Assembly: GCA_034439715.1 (NCBI GenBank)
Contig: JAWXAY010000026.1
Location: 1-24,344 of the forward strand
Source of the DNA: Pseudomonadota bacterium
GTDB lineage: Bacteria > Bdellovibrionota > Bdellovibrionia > Bdellovibrionales > SG-bin7
Reading direction: 5' to 3'
DNA length: 24,344 bases
Notes under the pieces: generated by a model
Told to the model about the DNA's origin: nothing
The model's input: the letters and a program-made list of their open reading frames with translations, nothing else
Database searches by the model: none
Program-made: the position numbers and the translations under genes
Shown: positions 1,908 to 23,954 of the stretch, one piece after another
Position numbering within the stretch: position 1 is the first letter of the stretch
Layout of the letters: every line of letters starts with the position of its first letter

Positions 1908-2837
1908 TCAATCTAGCGAGAAGACTTTGTCGTAAAAATAACGACCCGTCATTTCTTTGTAGATTTGCTTTAATAGATCATTTAGTAACACGCTGGCGCC
2001 AAATCTGAACATAAGGGGGCTCATCCAATCCCTACCCAGAGTCTCTGAAACCATACACAAATAGTGTACAGCCTGTTTGGCTGTGCGAATACCACCCGCC
2101 GGCTTCATGCCTATCTTCTTACCTGTTTTTTGGTAGTAATCCCTAATCGCCTGTAGCATCACGAGGGTCACCGGCATTGTGGCTGCGGGCTGAATTTTAC
2201 CGGTTGAGGTTTTTATAAAATCAGCTCCTGCAAGTAGGGCAATATCTGAGGCCAGACGCACATTCTCGAGAGTGCCCAATTCGCCGGTTTCTAAGATGAC
2301 CTTAAGGTGAGCGGGGCCACAAATTTCTTTGATCAATGAGATTTCATCAGAGACCTGATTGTAGTTTCCACTTAAAAAAGCACCGCGGTTTATGACCATG
2401 TCAATTTCTGTCGCCCCCTCACTCACCGCATATTTCACATCATCAGTTTTGGCATTCAAAGGAACTTGGCCTGACGGAAATGAAGTAGCCACACTAGCAA
2501 TTTGAATGTTTGTGCCCTTTAAACTTTTAACAGCGGTCGGCACCATTGCGGGATATACGCACACTGCGGCAACCTGAGGGATTGGCCTGAATCGGGGAAA
2601 CTTTGCCAATTCTTGAAAAACCATTCGCGGCACCGGCTCCATGGCCTTTTGGCAAAGTTGTTTCACTTTATTTTCAGTGTCGGCCCCTTCAAGTGTGGTT
2701 AAATCCACCATCGAAATGGCTAAGTAGAGCGCCTCTAATTTCGAATCCGCCTTAATGCTTCTTTTCGTAAATGAATTCGCGCGCTCGTTAATCCCGACTT
2801 CGTCAACGGGAACTCTAATTACTGAATCCCTATCCAT
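1908..2837 (-). CDS. deoC: Deoxyribose-phosphate aldolase (long form)
   Basis: 309 aa; DLTTLEGAD, EIDMVI, HLKVILETGEL, FIKTSTGK (Schiff-base Lys), GMKPAGGIR, RFGAS. GAGGA RBS upstream. Confidence 0.96.
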   Translation of the reverse strand: MDRDSVIRVPVDEVGINERANSFTKRSIKADSKLEALYLAISMVDLTTLEGADTENKVKQLCQKAMEPVPRMVFQELAKFPRFRPIPQVAAVCVYPAMVPTAVKSLKGTNIQIASVATSFPSGQVPLNAKTDDVKYAVSEGATEIDMVINRGAFLSGNYNQVSDEISLIKEICGPAHLKVILETGELGTLENVRLASDIALLAGADFIKTSTGKIQPAATMPVTLVMLQAIRDYYQKTGKKIGMKPAGGIRTAKQAVHYLCMVSETLGRDWMSPLMFRFGASVLLNDLLKQIYKEMTGRYFYDKVFSLD

Positions 2838-3086
2838 TTTACAGTCCTCTTACCTCTTACTCTTCCTTTTACACTTCTTTATCATGTATTCTCTTAAGGT
2901 GCCAGCCCCTAAACAAGTATCTCGCTGGGGTATTTGGAGAGCAACGAAAGGACATAAAGTCTTTAAATTTATCAGTTTTTCGAGGCGTTAGATCGAAGCC
3001 ATACCATTAAAGGGTACCAGTTTATCAAACGTAAGTCTGGACGGAGCTGGTCTTTACTTTTTTGCCCTAATTGGCTCTAATTAGGA

Positions 3087-4016
3087 ATGGATTTTAAACG
3101 CATCACTAGCCTTTTGGTTGTAGTGAATTTCACACTGTTAGCGTGCGTTAAGGGCCCGCCACAGAAAAATACTTCAAAGAAACCAACTAAATCTTTTAGC
3201 AGCTCCTTAACCAGCGAAAAAGTAGAAACAATTGAAGTCGTAAAAACACTTAAACTCGCCGCACCCGCTTTTAAAGAAGTCTTACCAAACCCCCCAAGAG
3301 CGGAGGCAAAAATCATGAGCCTCAAACAAATTTATGCGCGACCCAACTCACCCAAAGAAACCAACGTTTGGTTTTCGATAAATGAATTTCAACGTCCCGT
3401 ATGCATCATTACAGAGACGCAAAATGAATGTAGTCCCAAAATACCCAAAGAGTACCAGGGACTCGCTTTGGTAAATGCCATCCATTTTGCAAAGGGATAT
3501 TTTTTAGTCTACGGAAACAAAGCGGACGAAGGCCACCTGGTTCTAATGACCGATGAAGAAATTAAAAAGGCTGACTACGCTATTGATTTTTCAAGCTATT
3601 TAAATTCGCCTGATTTTTTACCGCCAAAAGATTTATCTATTAGCATGGGAATCAACTATTTAAAGCTTGAAGATGATATTTTGTACGTAAGCTATGGCCA
3701 CAAAACTTTTTCGAAACATACCAAAGGTAATAACTCGTTTTTAACGGCGCTAAAACTTCCTGAAGGCAAACCCCTTTGGCACTCCAAAACCCTGGTGGCT
3801 AACTCGGTCAATTTTATTACTTTGGGAGATTATTTAGTCGCAGGATACGGCTACACCAGCGAACCTGATTTTCTGTATCTTTTAAATAAGCGGACAGGAG
3901 CGGTCCATCAACAAATTGCCTTAAAAACTGGGCCCGAGTATATTGTCCATCGCGCAAATGAGGTCTATGTTCGTACTTACAACACCAACTATATTTTCGA
4001 AATTGAGCGGCAGTAA
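3087..4016 (+). CDS. Hypothetical lipoprotein, C-terminal half possibly beta-propeller-like
   Basis: 309 aa; signal peptide with lipobox-like LLAC; beta-rich repeats such as LTALKLPEGKPLWHS and LYLLNKRTGAV. Confidence 0.7.
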   Translation: MDFKRITSLLVVVNFTLLACVKGPPQKNTSKKPTKSFSSSLTSEKVETIEVVKTLKLAAPAFKEVLPNPPRAEAKIMSLKQIYARPNSPKETNVWFSINEFQRPVCIITETQNECSPKIPKEYQGLALVNAIHFAKGYFLVYGNKADEGHLVLMTDEEIKKADYAIDFSSYLNSPDFLPPKDLSISMGINYLKLEDDILYVSYGHKTFSKHTKGNNSFLTALKLPEGKPLWHSKTLVANSVNFITLGDYLVAGYGYTSEPDFLYLLNKRTGAVHQQIALKTGPEYIVHRANEVYVRTYNTNYIFEIERQ

Positions 4017-4111
4017 TAGGATCAAAGTCTAGTTTTAAGTCCTACCATACATTTGCTCCTAATATTTTTTGTAATTACTCCGATGAAAAAATAAAGGTTA
4101 GGAGCTTACAT

Positions 4112-4555
4112 ATGAAAAATATTATAAAGTTTTTAGGATTGTCTGTTTTACTGGTCGCCTTCAGTATCGCCTGTTCGTCAGAGGAAGAAGATATGGCTAG
4201 CAACCCGGAGTCTATGGATTCGGAAACTGTGGAGCTGAGCTCACACACGCCAGAAACCACAGATAAAGTGGATGTACCGGCCGAGGTCAGCAAAGCCGTA
4301 CATGACACCAAGGAGTCGTTCAAAAAGTCCAAAAAAATGGCGGCTGTAGATATGACTGATGGGAATTTCTTTTACCACGAAGTTAAAAGAGGCGAATGGC
4401 TAGGTAAAATTCTTCGTGAAAAAGATTTGAAGCCAATCTGGGGAGCAGGGAATTATGCTGAAACTATTGTAAAGTTAAATCCAGATGCCTTTGATAAAGA
4501 TGGCAATCTCAATCACGGCGCCAAAATTAAAATTCCGGCCCATTTAAGTAAATAA
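4112..4555 (+). CDS. LysM-domain lipoprotein
   Basis: SIAC lipobox, acidic linker, C-terminal HEVKRGEWLGKI...LNP...LNHGAKIKIP; AGGAG RBS. Confidence 0.8.
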   Translation: MKNIIKFLGLSVLLVAFSIACSSEEEDMASNPESMDSETVELSSHTPETTDKVDVPAEVSKAVHDTKESFKKSKKMAAVDMTDGNFFYHEVKRGEWLGKILREKDLKPIWGAGNYAETIVKLNPDAFDKDGNLNHGAKIKIPAHLSK

Positions 4556-4578
4556 ATTAAATATTTCCTAATTGATTC

Positions 4579-4610
4579 AAGGCACTCTCTAATTAGAGTG
4601 CCTTTTTTTT
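4579..4610 (+). terminator. Rho-independent terminator of the LysM gene
   Basis: AAGGCACTCT-ctaatt-AGAGTGCCTT perfect 10-bp stem running into a T tract. Confidence 0.88.
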
Positions 4611-4688
4611 GGGGCGACAAAGCGCCCCACTCTCACCGTCCAATTTGACCCATTTTTTCGTTAAAGATATTCCAAAGGGATTAACGAC

Positions 4689-4704
4689 TGGCCCAGATCT
4701 TGCC
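4689..4704 (+). promoter_or_regulatory. Candidate sigma-54 (-24/-12) promoter for the DksA/TraR gene
   Basis: TGGCCCAGATCTTGCC, GG-N10-GC spacing exact, about 30 bp before the ATG at 4736. Confidence 0.65.
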
Positions 4705-7714: not shown

Positions 7715-8497
7715 ATGAATGTCATATTAGTTATGTCTGTATTTCTTTTTGGATTTCTGTCTGAATCGATCTATGCCGACAATGTCGGAAATAAAATAGA
7801 AGTCAGTATAGAAAAGGTCTATGTCTCCCCCACTGGTTATGATGACAATGATAACGTACAGCTTATCATCGATGGCATGTTTCCAAATCAGTGTTACCAA
7901 ATCGCCAATACTAACTTTAGTATAGATGAAGATAAAAAATCCATTTCCATTAGGCAGCTTGCCAGGCTCAAGGGAACCACTGACTGTCAAATGAACCCGC
8001 TGCCCGAGTACCTCAGCTACGCCACAAGATTTAGTTCAGAAATTAATTTAGGGTACTTGATGGCCGGTGAGTATACTGTGAATTATAAATCGCCGAGTGC
8101 GCAGAAAATGGAACGCAAGTTTAAAGTGGAGGCGGCAAAGTCAGACAGTACTGATGAAGCCATCTATGCTCCCGTCAGTGACGCCTTTATACCAGAGATG
8201 ATTTACGAAACTGCTAATGCTGAAATCATCCTCACAGGAGTATTGGAATCTTTGTGCCTGCAATGGAAACAAGTCGATATAGAAAGATTTGATGACATCA
8301 TTGTGGTCATGCCGAAAATGCAATTAATATCCACCCCTGCTCAGTGTCGTCAAAATCCAGAACCGTTAGAAAAAATCGTATCTTTGGGTGCAGTTAAAGA
8401 AGGACGATTTTTATTACACGTGCGATCTATGTCTGGCAAAGGCATCAATCGCATGTTCTCGGTGGTAAAAAAACCAGGCGATATGAGCGGCAAGTAA
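7715..8497 (+). CDS. Secreted hypothetical protein with two similar Cys-containing beta domains
   Basis: Signal peptide; IIDGMFPNQC...GEYTV and IILTGVLESLC...GRFLLHV; AAGGAG RBS; follows the upstream gene by 13 bp. Confidence 0.75.
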   Translation: MNVILVMSVFLFGFLSESIYADNVGNKIEVSIEKVYVSPTGYDDNDNVQLIIDGMFPNQCYQIANTNFSIDEDKKSISIRQLARLKGTTDCQMNPLPEYLSYATRFSSEINLGYLMAGEYTVNYKSPSAQKMERKFKVEAAKSDSTDEAIYAPVSDAFIPEMIYETANAEIILTGVLESLCLQWKQVDIERFDDIIVVMPKMQLISTPAQCRQNPEPLEKIVSLGAVKEGRFLLHVRSMSGKGINRMFSVVKKPGDMSGK

Positions 8498-12006: not shown

Positions 12007-12444
12007 TTAGATCATATACTCAGGAAAACGTGACCAGTTAATCTCATCGAGTTTCAACTTGGCATATTCAGAATCTTTTAACAAGCGGCTTAGAAGAAAA
12101 AGCGCATCGGTCGTAGTAAAAATACCTGCTACTTCACCCTTGTCATTTTCAATAATAGCGCAACCATATTTTTTTTCAGCCATTCTTTGTGCCACTTCGG
12201 CCAATAGCTGCCCGCGTACCACTTTGAAGGGATTTGCCACCATTACGTCTTCTACGCTGAGGTCGCTCTTACCTTTAATATCGCGCTCGCTGACTACCCC
12301 AATAACTTTATTTTTTTCGACAACGGGCAAATGCCTAATTCTGTATTTTTTCATCACTGAAGCGGCATTTTCAACTAATGTATTCTTAAAAACTACTTCT
12401 GGACAATAAGTCATGCTCTCGCCGACACTAATTTTATTAGACAT
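12007..12444 (-). CDS. CBS-domain protein
   Basis: RIRHLPVV, VVSERD, VMVANP, KYGCAII, GIFTTTD; GGAGGGAG RBS. Confidence 0.92.
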   Translation of the reverse strand: MSNKISVGESMTYCPEVVFKNTLVENAASVMKKYRIRHLPVVEKNKVIGVVSERDIKGKSDLSVEDVMVANPFKVVRGQLLAEVAQRMAEKKYGCAIIENDKGEVAGIFTTTDALFLLSRLLKDSEYAKLKLDEINWSRFPEYMI

Positions 12445-12533
12445 AAACTCCCTCCTTTTTTTTAATAATAGAAGATCAAAGATAAAAAATCAAAAATAAA
12501 CTAACTCAGCTAAAAAAAACCATGGTAAGGGAA

Positions 12534-18990: not shown

Positions 18991-19082
18991 GCCCGGGTGG
19001 CGAAATTGGTAGACGCACAGGACTTAAAATCCTGAGGTTCCAGTAATGGGCCGTGTCAGTTCAAGTCTGACTCCGGGCACCA
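18991..19082 (+). tRNA. tRNA-Leu (anticodon TAA)
   Basis: Acceptor GCCCGGG/TCCGGGC plus A-CCA; D-arm GGCGAAATTGGTAGACGC; anticodon arm CAGGA-CTTAAAA-TCCTG; long variable arm; T-arm GTCAG-TTCAAGT-CTGAC. Confidence 0.97.
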
Positions 19083-19540
19083 CTTGTTACAGTACACGAA
19101 CCCACACGCCTTAAATTTGAAGAATCAGTCGGGGCATAGACCCCGAGCCTGATTTTAGTGGGATAAAGCTCTGCAAACTTAATTAGATTAGAAAAAATAG
19201 GCCGTCTGGTTTCTACAGAGACCTTTTCTAAGTTGTTTATGGCCCTTCTAACCCTAAAAAGTAATTCGTTCTGATCGATTGCACCTGATAAGGCACTTCT
19301 CGTTGGTAAAACAGATTTATTTTCTCCCATTATTTCATAAAGTCCTAATTCTGGTCCGTGAAAATACATGAATCTGTCATAACTCTTTTTAATTTGTGAA
19401 AGTTCAGAAATTTGGCAGAGCGATGGCAGGGCGACCCTGTAATCCGCACCCCTCCTTATTGTTAATTCTGGAGACTGTGCCAAAACAGGTAAAGCACTAA
19501 AACTAAATAAGAAGTAGACGCTCAAGCCAAATGTTTTCAT
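19061..19540 (-). CDS. Hypothetical, probably chimeric ORF: signal-peptide N-terminus fused to a serine-recombinase-like C-terminal remnant
   Basis: Starts MKTFGLSVYFLFSFSALPVLAQ; ends LEKVSVETRRPIFSNLIKFAELYPTKIRLGVY...GSCTVTSGARSQT, crossing the att core and stopping in the tRNA T-loop. Confidence 0.5.
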   Translation of the reverse strand: MKTFGLSVYFLFSFSALPVLAQSPELTIRRGADYRVALPSLCQISELSQIKKSYDRFMYFHGPELGLYEIMGENKSVLPTRSALSGAIDQNELLFRVRRAINNLEKVSVETRRPIFSNLIKFAELYPTKIRLGVYAPTDSSNLRRVGSCTVTSGARSQT

Positions 19541-19889
19541 TTAAAGTTCACGCTGCAACTAGCACCATTTCCACGAATCATAGTATTTAAAACGCCAAGT
19601 CCAATATTTTCAAAAAGGTTCGCAACTTCAGTTTTCTTAGCAGATGGGAATTATGCGACTTCCGACGAAAACGACTCTTTAAAGTCAAAAGCCCTGCATT
19701 ACTAGAAAGACCTCAATTTAGGTACCTGGCTGAATAATCATTCCCAGCGCTAAAACAGCTTAATTTGGCCAAGGAAGGATTCCTTTTTTGGTCACTTTAA
19801 AAGCATTGGCCCTCTCTATTAAGGTTTAAATTGAATTGAATTAACATTTTTATTGCTCATAAAAGTGTTCCATAAAGGAGTAAATATTT

Positions 19890-20342
19890 ATGATCAGGTC
19901 GAATTCTCTATTTCTATTAGTGATTGCATTCAGCTCCAACACATTTGCTGATATTATTTATGCGGAGATACTTTGCGCTCAATCCAAAGCGAAAAGCACA
20001 ATAGTAATCAATGAACGTATAAAGGAATTTACAAGTAGGCCCTTGAAGCACGGAGAAGTTGCCCATGTGTCTGCGCCTGGCATGTCAAACTGGAATTCAG
20101 AAAATCGGATATGTGTAACTTCATCAGTTCGTACTTCTACGGTAAATATTTCTAATGGACTTGGAGACTCAATAGTTCTCTGCGCCGCCGACAAGGCACG
20201 TAGTGAGGTTAGTATAAATCAGCAAATAGCAACTACAATTTCGAAATCACAGAGTAGTGGGTTTCCCATACTTGAAATTTCTCAACCGGCTCAGTCTAAT
20301 TGGAATTCGGAAAACCGAATCTGTGTGACACTTAGTTACTAA
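19890..20342 (+). CDS. Secreted hypothetical protein with an internally duplicated domain
   Basis: AAGGAG RBS, signal peptide, two copies of LCA...IN...SNWNSENRICVT that differ only synonymously in the 12-aa motif. Confidence 0.85.
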   Translation: MIRSNSLFLLVIAFSSNTFADIIYAEILCAQSKAKSTIVINERIKEFTSRPLKHGEVAHVSAPGMSNWNSENRICVTSSVRTSTVNISNGLGDSIVLCAADKARSEVSINQQIATTISKSQSSGFPILEISQPAQSNWNSENRICVTLSY

Positions 20343-20507
20343 ACTCATCGGTTTAAATTACCTAGTCAGATGGTCGATGGTCTCTTTAAAGCCATTGGCT
20401 GCCTTTAGGACAAACTACTAAAAAACTTTGATCTAGAACACATAGTTATCAAAATTTATTCGCTTCTTCCGGAATTACTGTGATACGCCTTAAATTATAA
20501 ATCCAAA

Positions 20508-20963
20508 TTATGGAAAAGATCTAATAAGAAATTTCGACTTACTAGGAAAGGCAGTAAAAGCGCGCGACATAGCCAAAGCTATATCATCTGTGTCTAACGT
20601 CAAAATCTCAACGGGGTCAAAATCAAGCGAGACGCCGCCCATATAAAAATCTGCGAAGTCATATTCGTTTTTATGAGTCGATTCACAGTAGCGTTCATAG
20701 AAAGCCCTCTCTCTTTTCTCATCAGTAGCATAAAGCTCAATGTGGAGATTACTTAAGTTCCTGCGGATATCTTTGGGCGAAATAGTTTTTCGGGTCTTAT
20801 AGAACAATTCGACCAAACAGGGCGTAACGATGTGTCTCGATGCATGAGGAAATTGATCGGCGTATTGAAACGCTTGCTCGGCTATTTTTTCTTCGGTTTT
20901 ATTTTTGTTAAAAAAGGCCACCAAAATGGAGGTATCAAAGAATAAGGCCTTTGGGTTACTCAA
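20508..20963 (-). CDS. PIN-domain (VapC-like) ribonuclease toxin
   Basis: FFDTSILVAFF, CLVEL, DFADFY, ILTLDTDD: the conserved PIN acidic residues. Confidence 0.85.
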   Translation of the reverse strand: MSNPKALFFDTSILVAFFNKNKTEEKIAEQAFQYADQFPHASRHIVTPCLVELFYKTRKTISPKDIRRNLSNLHIELYATDEKRERAFYERYCESTHKNEYDFADFYMGGVSLDFDPVEILTLDTDDIALAMSRAFTAFPSKSKFLIRSFP

Positions 20964-21253
20964 AAAAGAGAGTCCTTCACTTTTTTCCCCGCGTTCTCGC
21001 CGAGATCGACCTTTACCAATTTAGATGTGTCGGTGCCGCCCTCAGATAAAATGCCAAGACGCGAACGAATAACCGATTCTTTTGCATCGGGCGATAGGTG
21101 TGGAAGGTCGGTTTCGACTCGCTTACGAATGTCTTTTCCCATCTGTTCAATCTTCTTTCGATAGTCGGGAGCGCTAGCATTCAATCGGTTCTTCTCAAGC
21201 TCTGACATCTGGTCCACCTTATGAGACTGTCTACTTACCTTAATTTCGGACAC
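20960..21253 (-). CDS. Putative antitoxin, family not recognised
   Basis: 97 aa, charged, directly upstream of the PIN gene with a 4-bp start/stop overlap; GTG start uncertain. Confidence 0.6.
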   Translation of the reverse strand: MSEIKVSRQSHKVDQMSELEKNRLNASAPDYRKKIEQMGKDIRKRVETDLPHLSPDAKESVIRSRLGILSEGGTDTSKLVKVDLGENAGKKVKDSLF

Positions 21254-21288
21254 TTTTCGACAGCTAAATCGTTCAAATTCAATATAAT

Positions 21289-21311
21289 GGGTCTAATAAC
21301 AAATTAGACCC
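21289..21311. promoter_or_regulatory. Palindromic operator candidate upstream of the TA operon
   Basis: GGGTCTAAT-aacaa-ATTAGACCC, perfect 9-bp arms. Confidence 0.55.
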
Positions 21312-21340
21312 TTATAGTTAATATATGCAAACTATAGACC

Positions 21341-21470
21341 TATTGGGGACCATTCTTAATCCGACGTCGTTTTGCCAGCTCCGCGAGATTAAATCTTGGT
21401 CCCCGCCACTGAATTGGGTATTCTTCAACCCATGTCAGTAGTTCTTCCACCATAGGGCCACGGGCACCAC
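21341..21470 (+). repeat. 130-bp direct repeat copy 1 (P-arm plus core of the attP-like junction)
   Basis: 121/130 identical and ungapped against 23796-23925; ends in the tRNA 3'-end sequence CGGGCACCAC. Confidence 0.95.
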
Positions 21471-21509
21471 TTCATTGAGTAGACGAACTAGTAAGTTTAA
21501 AATTTTGGC

Positions 21510-23675
21510 CTACTGTTTTCTATAATATTGCGCCGAAAACTTTTTTAATTCTTCCTGCGCGCTGTCCAAAAATTTTTTTGCTGATTCAGCACTCTCGGTG
21601 GCCCACGGGGGCACTGCCCCCTCAAACCAGTGAGGATCTCTTACTTTCCCTATTAATTCAGTAGTAGTCAGTCCCTCAAACTCCCCCCCTTTCCTGATGA
21701 TCTTTTCGGTAGCACCCAACTCGTGGGTTGTAACAAAATATGAAAATTCAAAAGCGGAGCGCTGATCGTTGGGTAATCGGTCACGATACACTAGATAGTT
21801 TTTTCGTAATTCTACCCTCTGCGCTTTTGAAATATTAGAGTAATCATTAAAGAATCTTTCGTTACGAGCATGTACGTGATCGTGACGGTCGAAGTGATCA
21901 GGCCACATATCACGTCCATCGAACATTCCATTTTTACTAATTTTCCCTATGACATAACTGTCGGATCCATAAATTGAGTTAACCGCTGCTATCCCCATGT
22001 CTCCGTTAATTACCGGAATTTTCACTTGCATAGGAAAATCATCCGCGAATCTTAGAATTGGAGAAAAATAAGATGGATCCTGGTTTTTTGCTTTTCGAAA
22101 AAGCTCGTCGGTGCGCCAAGCGTCGGTGTCCATCACTCGGCGAACAAAGGCATCGTCAAGGTCACCTGCAATGCTTGTCCTTTTGCTCGCCGGGGTCATA
22201 AGAACGGATAGTCGATAGTTATATTCATTAAACCACTCATAACTTACTTTTTTATCTTTCACCCTGGCTGCAGCCTCCGCCGCAAATTCATCAAGAATCT
22301 TAAGTCGCCCCGCCACCTCAATATCTTGGCTTTCAATACTCTTCCTCGCAAAATTTAATGTGGGCTCGATTTTTTTTTCGAACTCAGGTATATGAGTCAT
22401 TATTGGATCAATCTTTCGAGCTCGCAGCAGCTTGGCAAGTTCTACTACTTCTTTGGCATCATCGCTTCCTACCATTAGGCGCTCCAGTATAACAGTGTCC
22501 TTTGTAACTTTTGGTCCCTTTGGCTTAAGTCCCTTCTCGGCTTGGGCAACTCGTTCAATGGCTACGGCAACTTCACCTTTTGAAACTGAATCGGTTATCT
22601 TCTTAACTTTACTTATTTTTCCGACTGCACCAATGGGAACGAACCCCGTTCCTATTTCAGCCAAGATACGACAGATGACCTTCACTTTCGCTTCGGTCTT
22701 ATAACAAATAAATTCTTTATACTGATTTTCCACAAAGGAAACGAAAGCACTTGATTTGTCTTTTTCAGTGGCAAAAAAAGTACCCAGAGCCGCAGAGGCT
22801 TGGAGAGCATGATACACAGTAGGAACGATTGGTCCCGCAACACTGTAGGCCAATTTCATGTATACCGAGTCTGTATTTATAGTAAAAGCATCAAGCATCG
22901 AACGCAAAGTATCCTTACCAGCGCCACCACATTCGCGACCTACAGATTCCCACGATATAAAAGTTTTTCGTTCCTCTGGTGTTGCTAGTTTTTCTGCAGG
23001 GATTTTGTCGGAACTGCATTGGGGGTCGTCATTTTGTGACGCTGTGCTTGGCGAAACCGTAGCTCCGCTTGGTTTCGTTTCGTTCGCAGAGGCAATAGAG
23101 ATTAAGTCTTTAAACAAAAATTCTAGATTATTTATATTGGCGGATTTGGTTCCAGATTCAAACGCCGGACTTAGCACACTTCTAAGTATACTTTCTAAAT
23201 CTATAAAAGTTTTGGCATTATCATTAGATACAGAAATCAAACTTACAAGATGTCTCTGCCGCTCAAAATGAAACTCAACAACTTTTGCGTTATGTTTTTT
23301 AACTGTGTACAAAATTTTTGAAATAAAGATGGGTGTTTTACCAATCTGCATTTCAATCATGGTCTCACTACGATGAAAGCCATCATTTTGGTCCGCGACG
23401 AAATCGCGAATTCTAAAAGCCGCAGCCTGCAAATCACTTTTATTGAGGTTTTTACTTATTGGTTCCGAAGTAATATAAAGAGCTCCCGTTTTCCCAAAGA
23501 CGGAAAACAAGGACCTTTGCATCGTCGGCTGGAGCTGGAGGCCAAGCTTTTTCGCGGATATTTCAATTTTGTTTATAAAGGTGCTTTGATCGGCATCAGA
23601 TAAAGTCGGGGAAAAACAAACTGAGATTACCATTAGTAAAAAAAGTTTTGGCATCTTAGAAAAACATAAGGGCAC
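21510..23675 (-). CDS. Large secreted hypothetical protein, multi-domain, with C-terminal His-rich motifs
   Basis: 721 aa; GGAGG RBS before GTG; signal-like N-terminus; Cys-containing middle; FDRHDHVH and FVTTHE near the C-terminus. Confidence 0.8.
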   Translation of the reverse strand: MPLCFSKMPKLFLLMVISVCFSPTLSDADQSTFINKIEISAKKLGLQLQPTMQRSLFSVFGKTGALYITSEPISKNLNKSDLQAAAFRIRDFVADQNDGFHRSETMIEMQIGKTPIFISKILYTVKKHNAKVVEFHFERQRHLVSLISVSNDNAKTFIDLESILRSVLSPAFESGTKSANINNLEFLFKDLISIASANETKPSGATVSPSTASQNDDPQCSSDKIPAEKLATPEERKTFISWESVGRECGGAGKDTLRSMLDAFTINTDSVYMKLAYSVAGPIVPTVYHALQASAALGTFFATEKDKSSAFVSFVENQYKEFICYKTEAKVKVICRILAEIGTGFVPIGAVGKISKVKKITDSVSKGEVAVAIERVAQAEKGLKPKGPKVTKDTVILERLMVGSDDAKEVVELAKLLRARKIDPIMTHIPEFEKKIEPTLNFARKSIESQDIEVAGRLKILDEFAAEAAARVKDKKVSYEWFNEYNYRLSVLMTPASKRTSIAGDLDDAFVRRVMDTDAWRTDELFRKAKNQDPSYFSPILRFADDFPMQVKIPVINGDMGIAAVNSIYGSDSYVIGKISKNGMFDGRDMWPDHFDRHDHVHARNERFFNDYSNISKAQRVELRKNYLVYRDRLPNDQRSAFEFSYFVTTHELGATEKIIRKGGEFEGLTTTELIGKVRDPHWFEGAVPPWATESAESAKKFLDSAQEELKKFSAQYYRKQ

Positions 23676-23795
23676 AGTTCCTCCTGGTTCCCTATATTTT
23701 TTTCGGCATAAGCAGAATGGATTAGCACAAGACTTTTGTCTGAATCTATAGTTAATCCCTTGGAAAGGACTGCCTTTGGACCTGACTGACTGATT

Positions 23796-23925
23796 TATTA
23801 GGGACCTTTCTCAACCCGACGTCGTTTTGCCAGCTCCGCAAGATTAATCCTTGGTTCCCGCCACTGAATTGGGTATGCTTCAACCCATGTCAGTAGTTCT
23901 TCCACCATAGGGCCACGGGCACCAC
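23796..23925 (+). repeat. 130-bp direct repeat copy 2 (attR-like junction)
   Basis: Matches 21341-21470; the sequence after the core is unrelated to that after the other two cores. Confidence 0.95.
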
Positions 23926-23928
23926 ACA

Positions 23929-23954
23929 ATATCTGATTTCGAGATATCGGATAT
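23929..23954 (+). terminator. Hairpin directly after the last core, possibly the original tRNA 3' trailer
   Basis: ATATCTGAT-ttcgagat-ATCGGATAT, 9-bp stem with one G-U pair; only a short T run follows. Confidence 0.4.

Follow-up and report, generated by a model that had tools for sequence, protein, structure and literature searches.

A tandem cassette array behind tRNA-Leu(TAA) and a probable family of large serine recombinases with attP inside the recombinase gene

Results

A cassette array behind tRNA-Leu(TAA)

The window analyzed here is the whole 24,344-nucleotide stretch of contig JAWXAY010000026.1 (assembly GCA_034439715.1), from a member of the Bdellovibrionales. Its right-hand part carries a tRNA-Leu(TAA) gene (18991..19082, plus strand), whose T-arm GTTC (19059-19062) would be the zinc-ribbon motif of an attB half-site and whose GC (19077-19078) would be the crossover. 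The tRNA-terminal core is repeated at 21462 and at 23917, each copy preceded by a 130-base arm. The cores delimit cassette 1 (19078..21464, 2387 bp) and cassette 2 (21465..23919, 2455 bp), and a survey of open reading frames (ORFs) found no large serine recombinase (LSR), nor any other recombinase, in either.

At the tRNA itself, an attL-type junction (19059..19101) joins the tRNA half-site to a P' arm with GAAC at 19098-19101, and this arm scores second among the 103,282 CCA sites of the genome. The arm (19083..19157, plus strand) is a relic of an LSR 3' end, read on the minus strand, and is 96% identical to the arm of a fourth junction on contig C16. It also provides the tRNA with a terminator-like hairpin downstream (19124-19160, stem 19129-19146, z -2.7), which overlaps the former variable linker of the LSR. 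Promoter-like sequences (10, vs 11.2 in shuffles) and terminator-like sequences (8, vs 5.6) show little or no excess.

Cassette 1 begins with a 159-aa ORF (19061..19540, minus strand) that has a hydrophobic N-terminus and falls in no Pfam family; toward its end it passes through the P' arm in the former LSR frame, and its stop codon lies within the tRNA. A 150-aa ORF (19890..20342, plus strand) follows, with a hydrophobic N-terminus, an internal repeat and no family above the cut-off, and then a 97-aa ORF and a 151-aa PIN-like ORF (20508..21253, minus strand; Pfam E 0.006, below the cut-off), probably a toxin-antitoxin pair. The cassette ends in the first P arm copy (21340..21468, minus strand), which encodes 42 codons of an LSR tail in its short form and keeps the LSR frame across the crossover. 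Cassette 2 is largely filled by a 721-aa ORF (21510..23675, minus strand) with a hydrophobic N-terminus, for which no Pfam or PADLOC family was found and which, among 8000 candidates scored, matched only itself. The second P arm copy (23798..23923, minus strand) has 41 tail codons and is 93% identical to the first over 130 nt.

The third junction (23896..23943) has an intact P arm, with GTTC at 23896 and GC at 23919-23920, and a right arm lacking GAAC. Beyond it, a third segment begins with a rhodanese gene at the contig end that is repeated in the genome (23920..24344, plus strand). Six loci (L120-L125), drawn from two metagenome contigs with 99.98% identity to the window, connect it to contig C16, where after another 2739 bp there is a third P arm, joined to a right arm nearly identical to the first; the third segment, 2739 bp in all, thus extends past the window. 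On C16 (304-2235) it includes an FtsK-family gene that shares 41% identity with another copy, on contig C11. The third junction had been a candidate attR, a reading that we rejected on the continuation of the array in L120-L125. That junction therefore lies within the array, and no chromosomal B' arm is present in the window. The three P arms of the array are identical over the 36 bases adjoining the core, while the cargo differs. The third junction has lost GAAC, and there is a 2-base insertion in the C16 arm.

The middle junction

Attention had been drawn to the middle junction (21439..21490) by the initial annotation, which read it as an attP of LSR geometry. Upon re-reading the sequence, we found its coordinates exact: the two arms (21439-21450 and 21479-21490) show pairing at 10 of 12 positions and span 52 bp, centered between 21464 and 21465, within the central GC; GTTC at 21441 starts 23 bases left of that GC, whereas the tRNA GTTC at 19059 starts 18 left of the GC at 19077; and GAAC occupies 21485-21488. 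Its caveat that the inner arms show little symmetry is correct for this junction and for the whole family described below. Inverted repeats that span 44-60 bp and pair at 10/12 positions or better number 46 in the window, distributed over 26 centers, and the chance that a given 9-nt core holds such a repeat is about 0.01. Since such repeats are common here, this one is weak evidence by itself, and its weight comes from relatives. When arms are scored with matrices built from loci outside this genome, in two cases with near-identical P arms, the summed P and P' score ranks the middle junction first among the 103,282 CCA sites, although its P' arm scored alone ranks only 123rd. The reading of the middle junction as a P|P' site left between two tandem integrase-less cassettes behind tRNA-Leu(TAA) largely holds.

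Elements with a linked serine recombinase in relatives

The 130-base window arm was matched in six of 60 related genomes. In locus L037, a 7-kb element runs from tRNA-Leu(TAG) to a copy of this arm at its far end and carries an LSR gene on the opposite strand together with a Replic_Relax gene. The linked enzyme, found in relatives, is an LSR with Resolvase, Recombinase and zinc-ribbon domains. A profile of the arm-encoded protein has matches in 119 of the 401 genomes of the phylum. We collected 49 regions, comprising 40 around higher-scoring profile matches, six earlier loci and three stretches of the window's own genome, and 34 of them show a tRNA or tmRNA with the arm downstream. A full LSR gene lies at the tRNA in 16 of these 34 loci; some piece of an LSR lies inside in 19, and none in 15. 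Locus L160 has a full LSR element at tRNA-Leu(TAA), the target in L088 too, and this element ends in the same short tail as the window's arms.

Consistent association with a tyrosine integrase was looked for by two routes: a profile built from 13 of the window genome's own such genes found none inside the 34 elements, and Pfam found none among 144 element ORFs of at least 110 aa. The same Pfam search placed Replic_Relax in eight loci, small resolvases in two and ParB family members in none. Element cargo includes restriction-modification, toxin-antitoxin, SIR2-HerA and metal-resistance genes. In several genomes, cassettes without an LSR (L074, L076, L077, L078 and L079) share a pair of unknown proteins with hydrophobic starts, one of about 235 aa with an HExxH motif and one of about 160 aa, 26-76% identical between loci. 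Viral contigs gave no match to a 22-base P-arm pattern and no relative of a family LSR, and therefore no pointer to phage.

The main set was chosen by its tail, and a check was therefore made from the opposite side, starting with the LSR. This second set of 32 loci consists of 12 short and 20 long ones, the latter taken roughly by rank once short contigs and previously used loci had been omitted. A called tRNA stands beside the gene in 19 of the 32, with the same phase in all 19 and GAAC at +16 in 17. A tail with a six-base core was found within the fetched DNA in only seven of the 20 long loci; the other 13 may be longer than 19 kb, cut by a contig end, or equipped with a different tail.

Geometry of the attachment sites

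Site geometry was compared over 33 loci, one of the 34 being left out because its junction does not end in CCA, with positions counted from the last tRNA base. GTTC stands at -29 in 31/33 P arms and at -24 in 32/33 tRNAs, and GAAC at +16 in 25/33 right arms. With the center placed between -6 and -5, these motifs occupy half-site positions 21-24 in attP and 16-19 in attB, and the outer motif bases of the element site, an inverted GTTC/GAAC pair, span 48 bp. Half-site positions 21-25 pair in all 16 rebuilt attP sites, and outer symmetry there is 0.76 at the predicted center, compared with 0.15-0.34 at 12 other registers. The outermost right arms behave otherwise: none of 33 (four of them P' arms rather than true B') matches GAAC at three of four bases at +11, and rebuilt attB sites show no symmetry peak. 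The attB would therefore be one-armed.

The tRNA and the far end of the element are identical at -6 to -1 in 33/33 loci, a count partly built in because the register chosen was the one with the longest match to the end of the tRNA, followed by a filter for CCA, at the cost of two of 42 junctions; two farther tRNAs of L109 were set aside. At -7, identity falls to 23/33. The shared core extends leftwards to between six and 16 bases, is exactly six in ten loci and is never shorter. The central dinucleotide likewise matches at both ends in 33/33, with the register partly chosen by that match, and is GC in 21 loci, CC in six, GT in two, TC in two, AC in one and TG in one. The symmetry scan, and the fixed phase of the LSR gene described below, are independent of core length. 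With such a short shared tRNA end, one family can reach many tRNA types as well as tmRNA: targets comprise Leu, Arg, Asp, Ala, Phe, Gly, Gln, Glu, Met, Val and Pro tRNAs and tmRNA, at least 12 types, in loci related by descent rather than independent. One type of P arm is found at tmRNA, tRNA-Ala and tRNA-Phe (L084, L097 and L098), which are alike only in their last six bases. Within the motifs, synonymous positions do not vary either. The motif codon is GAA in all 39 arms that could be read, whereas the rest of the tails has 87 GAA and 106 GAG, and GGT encodes 14/14 motif glycines, against 121/506 glycines in LSR genes.

These comparisons bear out the LSR attP geometry proposed for the middle junction: the distal inverted repeat proved to be conserved once homologous arms were aligned, and the use of the tRNA T-arm as attB half-site by an LSR is supported by motif positions and by the LSR linked to the same arms in relatives, the window itself having no cognate LSR. 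The proposed 5-bp shift stands on the tRNA side (-24 vs -29) and fails on the B' side. What had been called a weak B' match in the window was no B' arm at all. The initial annotation also overlooked that the P arm codes for the tail of the recombinase.

An LSR gene that runs across attP

The LSR gene runs across attP. Its catalytic, Recombinase and zinc-ribbon Pfam domains all stay in the integrated gene, which ends 5-47 codons into the antisense strand of the tRNA (five codons in 8/16). Rebuilding attP extends the LSR in frame by 66-92 residues in all 16 full elements. One natural in-frame fusion exists, at a tandem junction in L070, as a 636-aa protein recorded as a recombinase, and in L072 an LSR remnant is fused to a tail.

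The tail consists of a conserved strand-like motif followed by three helices that give weak helix-turn-helix matches. Purifying selection acts on it (pN < pS in 64/64 pairs, compared at 55% identity or more), and intact tails are also present in elements without an LSR. It has no conserved start: 18 of 40 tails lack ATG, GTG or TTG in their first 16 codons, and several carry in-frame stops 1-3 codons past the crossover. Database records call most tails as stand-alone proteins of 60-190 aa that begin at scattered places. A search with one tail among longer proteins gave no match, and the tail profile found among them only the L070 fusion, one cargo read-through and three proteins of 181-194 aa. 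The read-through (L071:8165-9385) is a cargo gene of beta-lactamase/serine hydrolase fold that continues through the junction into a tail; this fusion, recorded as a protein of 374 aa, arose by chance. By sequence, the tail matches no solved structure. A predicted model is a three-helix bundle with a disordered start (pLDDT 69) that matches LuxR/GerE-type domains by fold, with no hit reaching E 0.001; an atlas search with the tail gave only leads at 0.84 or below and, with the small gene downstream, nothing. A single-sequence model of the fused protein (pLDDT 39) was unusable.

That small gene, of 38-72 codons as called, lies directly behind the tail in 24 of 67 tail hits (for example L034:10184-10351 and L035:5638-5823, both plus strand, and in L037 and L160). 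It mostly has a hydrophobic start and falls into four groups by BLAST. It would be read together with the LSR on a circle, and its size resembles that of many directionality factors, but its product may be a membrane protein. Four DNA sequencing runs, all in the form of contigs, which lose rare forms, showed no circle. They contained two joints whose inserted letters are the known C16 and C55 continuations, and one further joint, in a single run only, with unknown letters between.

The window's P arms, with 41-42 codons, stop after the first helix and lack the recognition helices. We considered mere decay and rejected it: in L034, L035 and L160 the tail ends at nearly the same point, with the small gene still directly behind, and the short tail is therefore an inherited variant. 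The window tails have ATG-GTG at codons 6-7, and close copies of them show pN about equal to pS (5/63 vs 2/21 sites), with few changes. The small gene is gone in the window and broken on C16. The two window cassettes appear to have lost LSR and relaxase alike, and are most likely stranded derivatives that would be mobile only with an LSR supplied in trans.

Other loci in the same genome

The assembly has nothing close to the LSR of the nearest relatives; the best match to the L088 enzyme, at 43%, is on contig C52 in a full family element at tRNA-Arg. It is one of four further LSR genes that end at or inside opposite-strand tRNAs, the others being on C49 (tRNA-Asn), C102 (tRNA-Ala) and C15 (tRNA-Ser), the last frameshifted. 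On C83 (about 2791-4700), an LSR gene ends shortly after an attP-like site, and at that site another ORF, encoding a Recombinase domain and a helix-turn-helix-like part, begins in a different frame; this appears to be a second kind of split design, on a contig with no called tRNA. Contig C79 (1-440) has a 95% identical rhodanese segment behind tRNA-Arg(TCG), which shares its last six bases with tRNA-Leu(TAA), and C55 has a cut P arm and a further attP-like junction (8394-8458, 12373-12530); together they probably represent a second array. On C29, a longer 3' duplicate of tRNA-Met lies 3.5 kb behind the tRNA (200579 and 204133) and is followed by a family P' arm, perhaps where a different integrase pushed an LSR element outwards.

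Discussion

The observations are best explained, and we consider this likely as a whole, by an LSR family that integrates at tRNA and tmRNA 3' ends and has its attP inside the LSR gene. The family, as it appears in Bdellovibrio-like bacteria, consists of small integrative, mobilizable elements with an LSR, often a Replic_Relax relaxase, and cargo. The LSR very likely reads the T-loop GTTC as a shifted attB motif and cuts at the -6/-5 dinucleotide; the right arm of the inserting element would then restore the last four tRNA bases. Arrays very probably grow by repeated insertion at the same tRNA, which would leave P|P' junctions between neighboring elements. There is good reason to regard the tail as a working part of the enzyme that would be made only from attP, on circles or at tandem junctions.

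The role of the tail is a more tentative matter. The circle-encoded enzyme may be the integrating form, with a tail that favors integration at a one-armed attB; this has somewhat less than an even chance of being right. The tail would supply the contact that the motif-less B' arm cannot, and integration would switch the enzyme off for further integration. Autorepression and protein stability are alternative roles. More doubtful is an extended scheme in which the tail-bearing form would integrate into almost any tRNA and the tail-less form could not, tail and small gene would be a circle-only module, and cassettes would be shuffled in trans as an integron-like store. In that scheme the cutting of its own gene would set the direction of the integrase, and for the tail-bearing form a T-loop GTTC, a matching dinucleotide and NCCA would suffice, whatever the downstream DNA.

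Other explanations are possible for parts of this picture. The tail might be a small gene in its own right, started independently and encoding a regulator or directionality factor, and joined in frame to the LSR only incidentally. An ATG at codon 6 in the window arms, L034, L035, L085 and L089, the selection on tails in LSR-less arrays such as L071 and L077, and the stand-alone calls in databases all point that way; however, the scattered called starts, the 18 of 40 tails without a start, the stops just beyond the crossover and a phase to the LSR that is fixed in 16/16 and 19/19 loci make it improbable. Somewhat easier to entertain, and still unlikely, is the idea that LSR-less cassettes, rather than being decayed islands, are a working integron-like system of short cargo units that retain intact ends and are shuffled by an LSR in trans. 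It would account for the identical core-adjoining P arms with different cargo, for the rhodanese segment standing both behind the array and behind tRNA-Arg(TCG) on C79, and for the 15 of 34 loci with no LSR piece inside, but the lost GAAC, the insertion in the C16 arm, the missing or broken small gene and the lack of a close cognate LSR in the assembly speak against it.

The sites themselves could have been produced otherwise. Typical targets of tyrosine integrases are tRNA 3' ends, and the genome has 14 such genes, so that the repeats might be theirs and the inverted repeat incidental; yet the core is only 6-16 bases, the T arm is not duplicated, no tyrosine integrase lies inside the 34 elements and LSR genes cross the site in fixed phase, and we give this reading almost no credence. 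Hardly more probable is conservation of GTTC and GAAC purely through the protein coding of both arms, with symmetry as a by-product: both arms are indeed coding on the minus strand, but the motif bases are invariant at synonymous positions and the symmetry occurs at a single register.

The partial precedent for an attP inside an LSR gene, as far as its description goes, is the set of tandem ssrA islands of Dehalococcoides, in which a CcrB-like LSR gene (dsiB) overlaps attL on the reverse strand, has no stop of its own, and was suggested to be fully functional perhaps only on a circle or beside an adjacent island; 15 such islands have no integration module (McMurdie et al. 2011, PMC3146451). 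Our family is similarly tandem at the 3' end of a stable RNA, with an LSR overlapping attL and module-less members. The Dehalococcoides islands are described with a single ssrA target, a 20-bp repeat and a six-gene module (dsiA, RecF-like, ParB-like, mom), in contrast to the core down to six bases, the many tRNAs plus tmRNA and the LSR mostly with Replic_Relax found here. The Pfam results given above show Replic_Relax and no ParB family. The missing 3' piece, a crossover map and motifs are absent from the available text of PMC3146451; new here are the attP inside an LSR gene and the in-frame tail.

The site design agrees with the model of the LI/A118 integrase, where the zinc-ribbon motif lies at half-site positions 16-24 in attP and 11-19 in attB (Rutherford et al. 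2013, PMC3783163), in its two-base crossover, its three-domain enzyme and motifs at the outer ends of the model positions; it differs, as far as the model is presented there, in having a motif in one attB arm only, a varying central dinucleotide and attP within the integrase gene. An attachment site inside the integrase gene also characterizes the suicidal (SSV1-type) integrases of archaea, whose split is viewed as built-in direction control, a design called exclusive to archaea in the part of a 2021 review available to us (PMC8371274). There, a tyrosine recombinase is cut into two inactive halves, while here a serine enzyme loses only its tail. In mycobacteriophage BPs, a protein encoded across attP has its C-terminus exchanged upon integration, as outlined for integration-dependent immunity (PMC4557955). 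The split gene of BPs encodes a repressor, and that of the present family an integrase. In Mx8 it is the integrase that spans attP, and its C-terminus is reportedly swapped by integration. Both BPs and Mx8 use tyrosine integrases.

Small cargo elements also pile up behind tRNA genes as Prochlorococcus tycheposons, the new pushing the old outwards, but 910 of 937 are reported there with tyrosine recombinases and about 40 nt of tRNA is duplicated (10.1101/2020.12.28.424599), neither of which holds here. Integron arrays need an IntI-type tyrosine integrase alongside, and none occurs in the window or the 34 elements. Serine integration into tRNA genes was called rare, with cases listed, in the portion of a 2011 survey available to us (PMC3218068); tRNA is not mentioned in the main text of a preprint on LSR mining (10.1101/2021.11.05.467528), according to a word search, and the accessible part of PMC12884075 has nothing on a layout with attP in the LSR gene. 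For SprA, the title of a paper in the reference list of PMC11795197 proposes that the extreme C-terminus helps set direction. A literature search, mostly outside subscription journals and covering articles rather than supplements, found no paper on the family, the one-armed attB or the tail.

Serine integrases are core genome-editing tools whose choice of direction is still debated, and here one gene yields two natural forms of the enzyme, open to direct comparison. Annotated genome copies are the shortened form, and cloning screens may therefore test the wrong protein. The short core likewise means that island finders seeking duplicated pieces of tRNA tend to miss these elements, prone to be overlooked despite tail-profile matches in more than a quarter of the genomes of the phylum (119/401). 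The window itself is probably a modest, stranded example of the family. A family needing only the universal tRNA end could provide landing sites in many bacteria without engineering.
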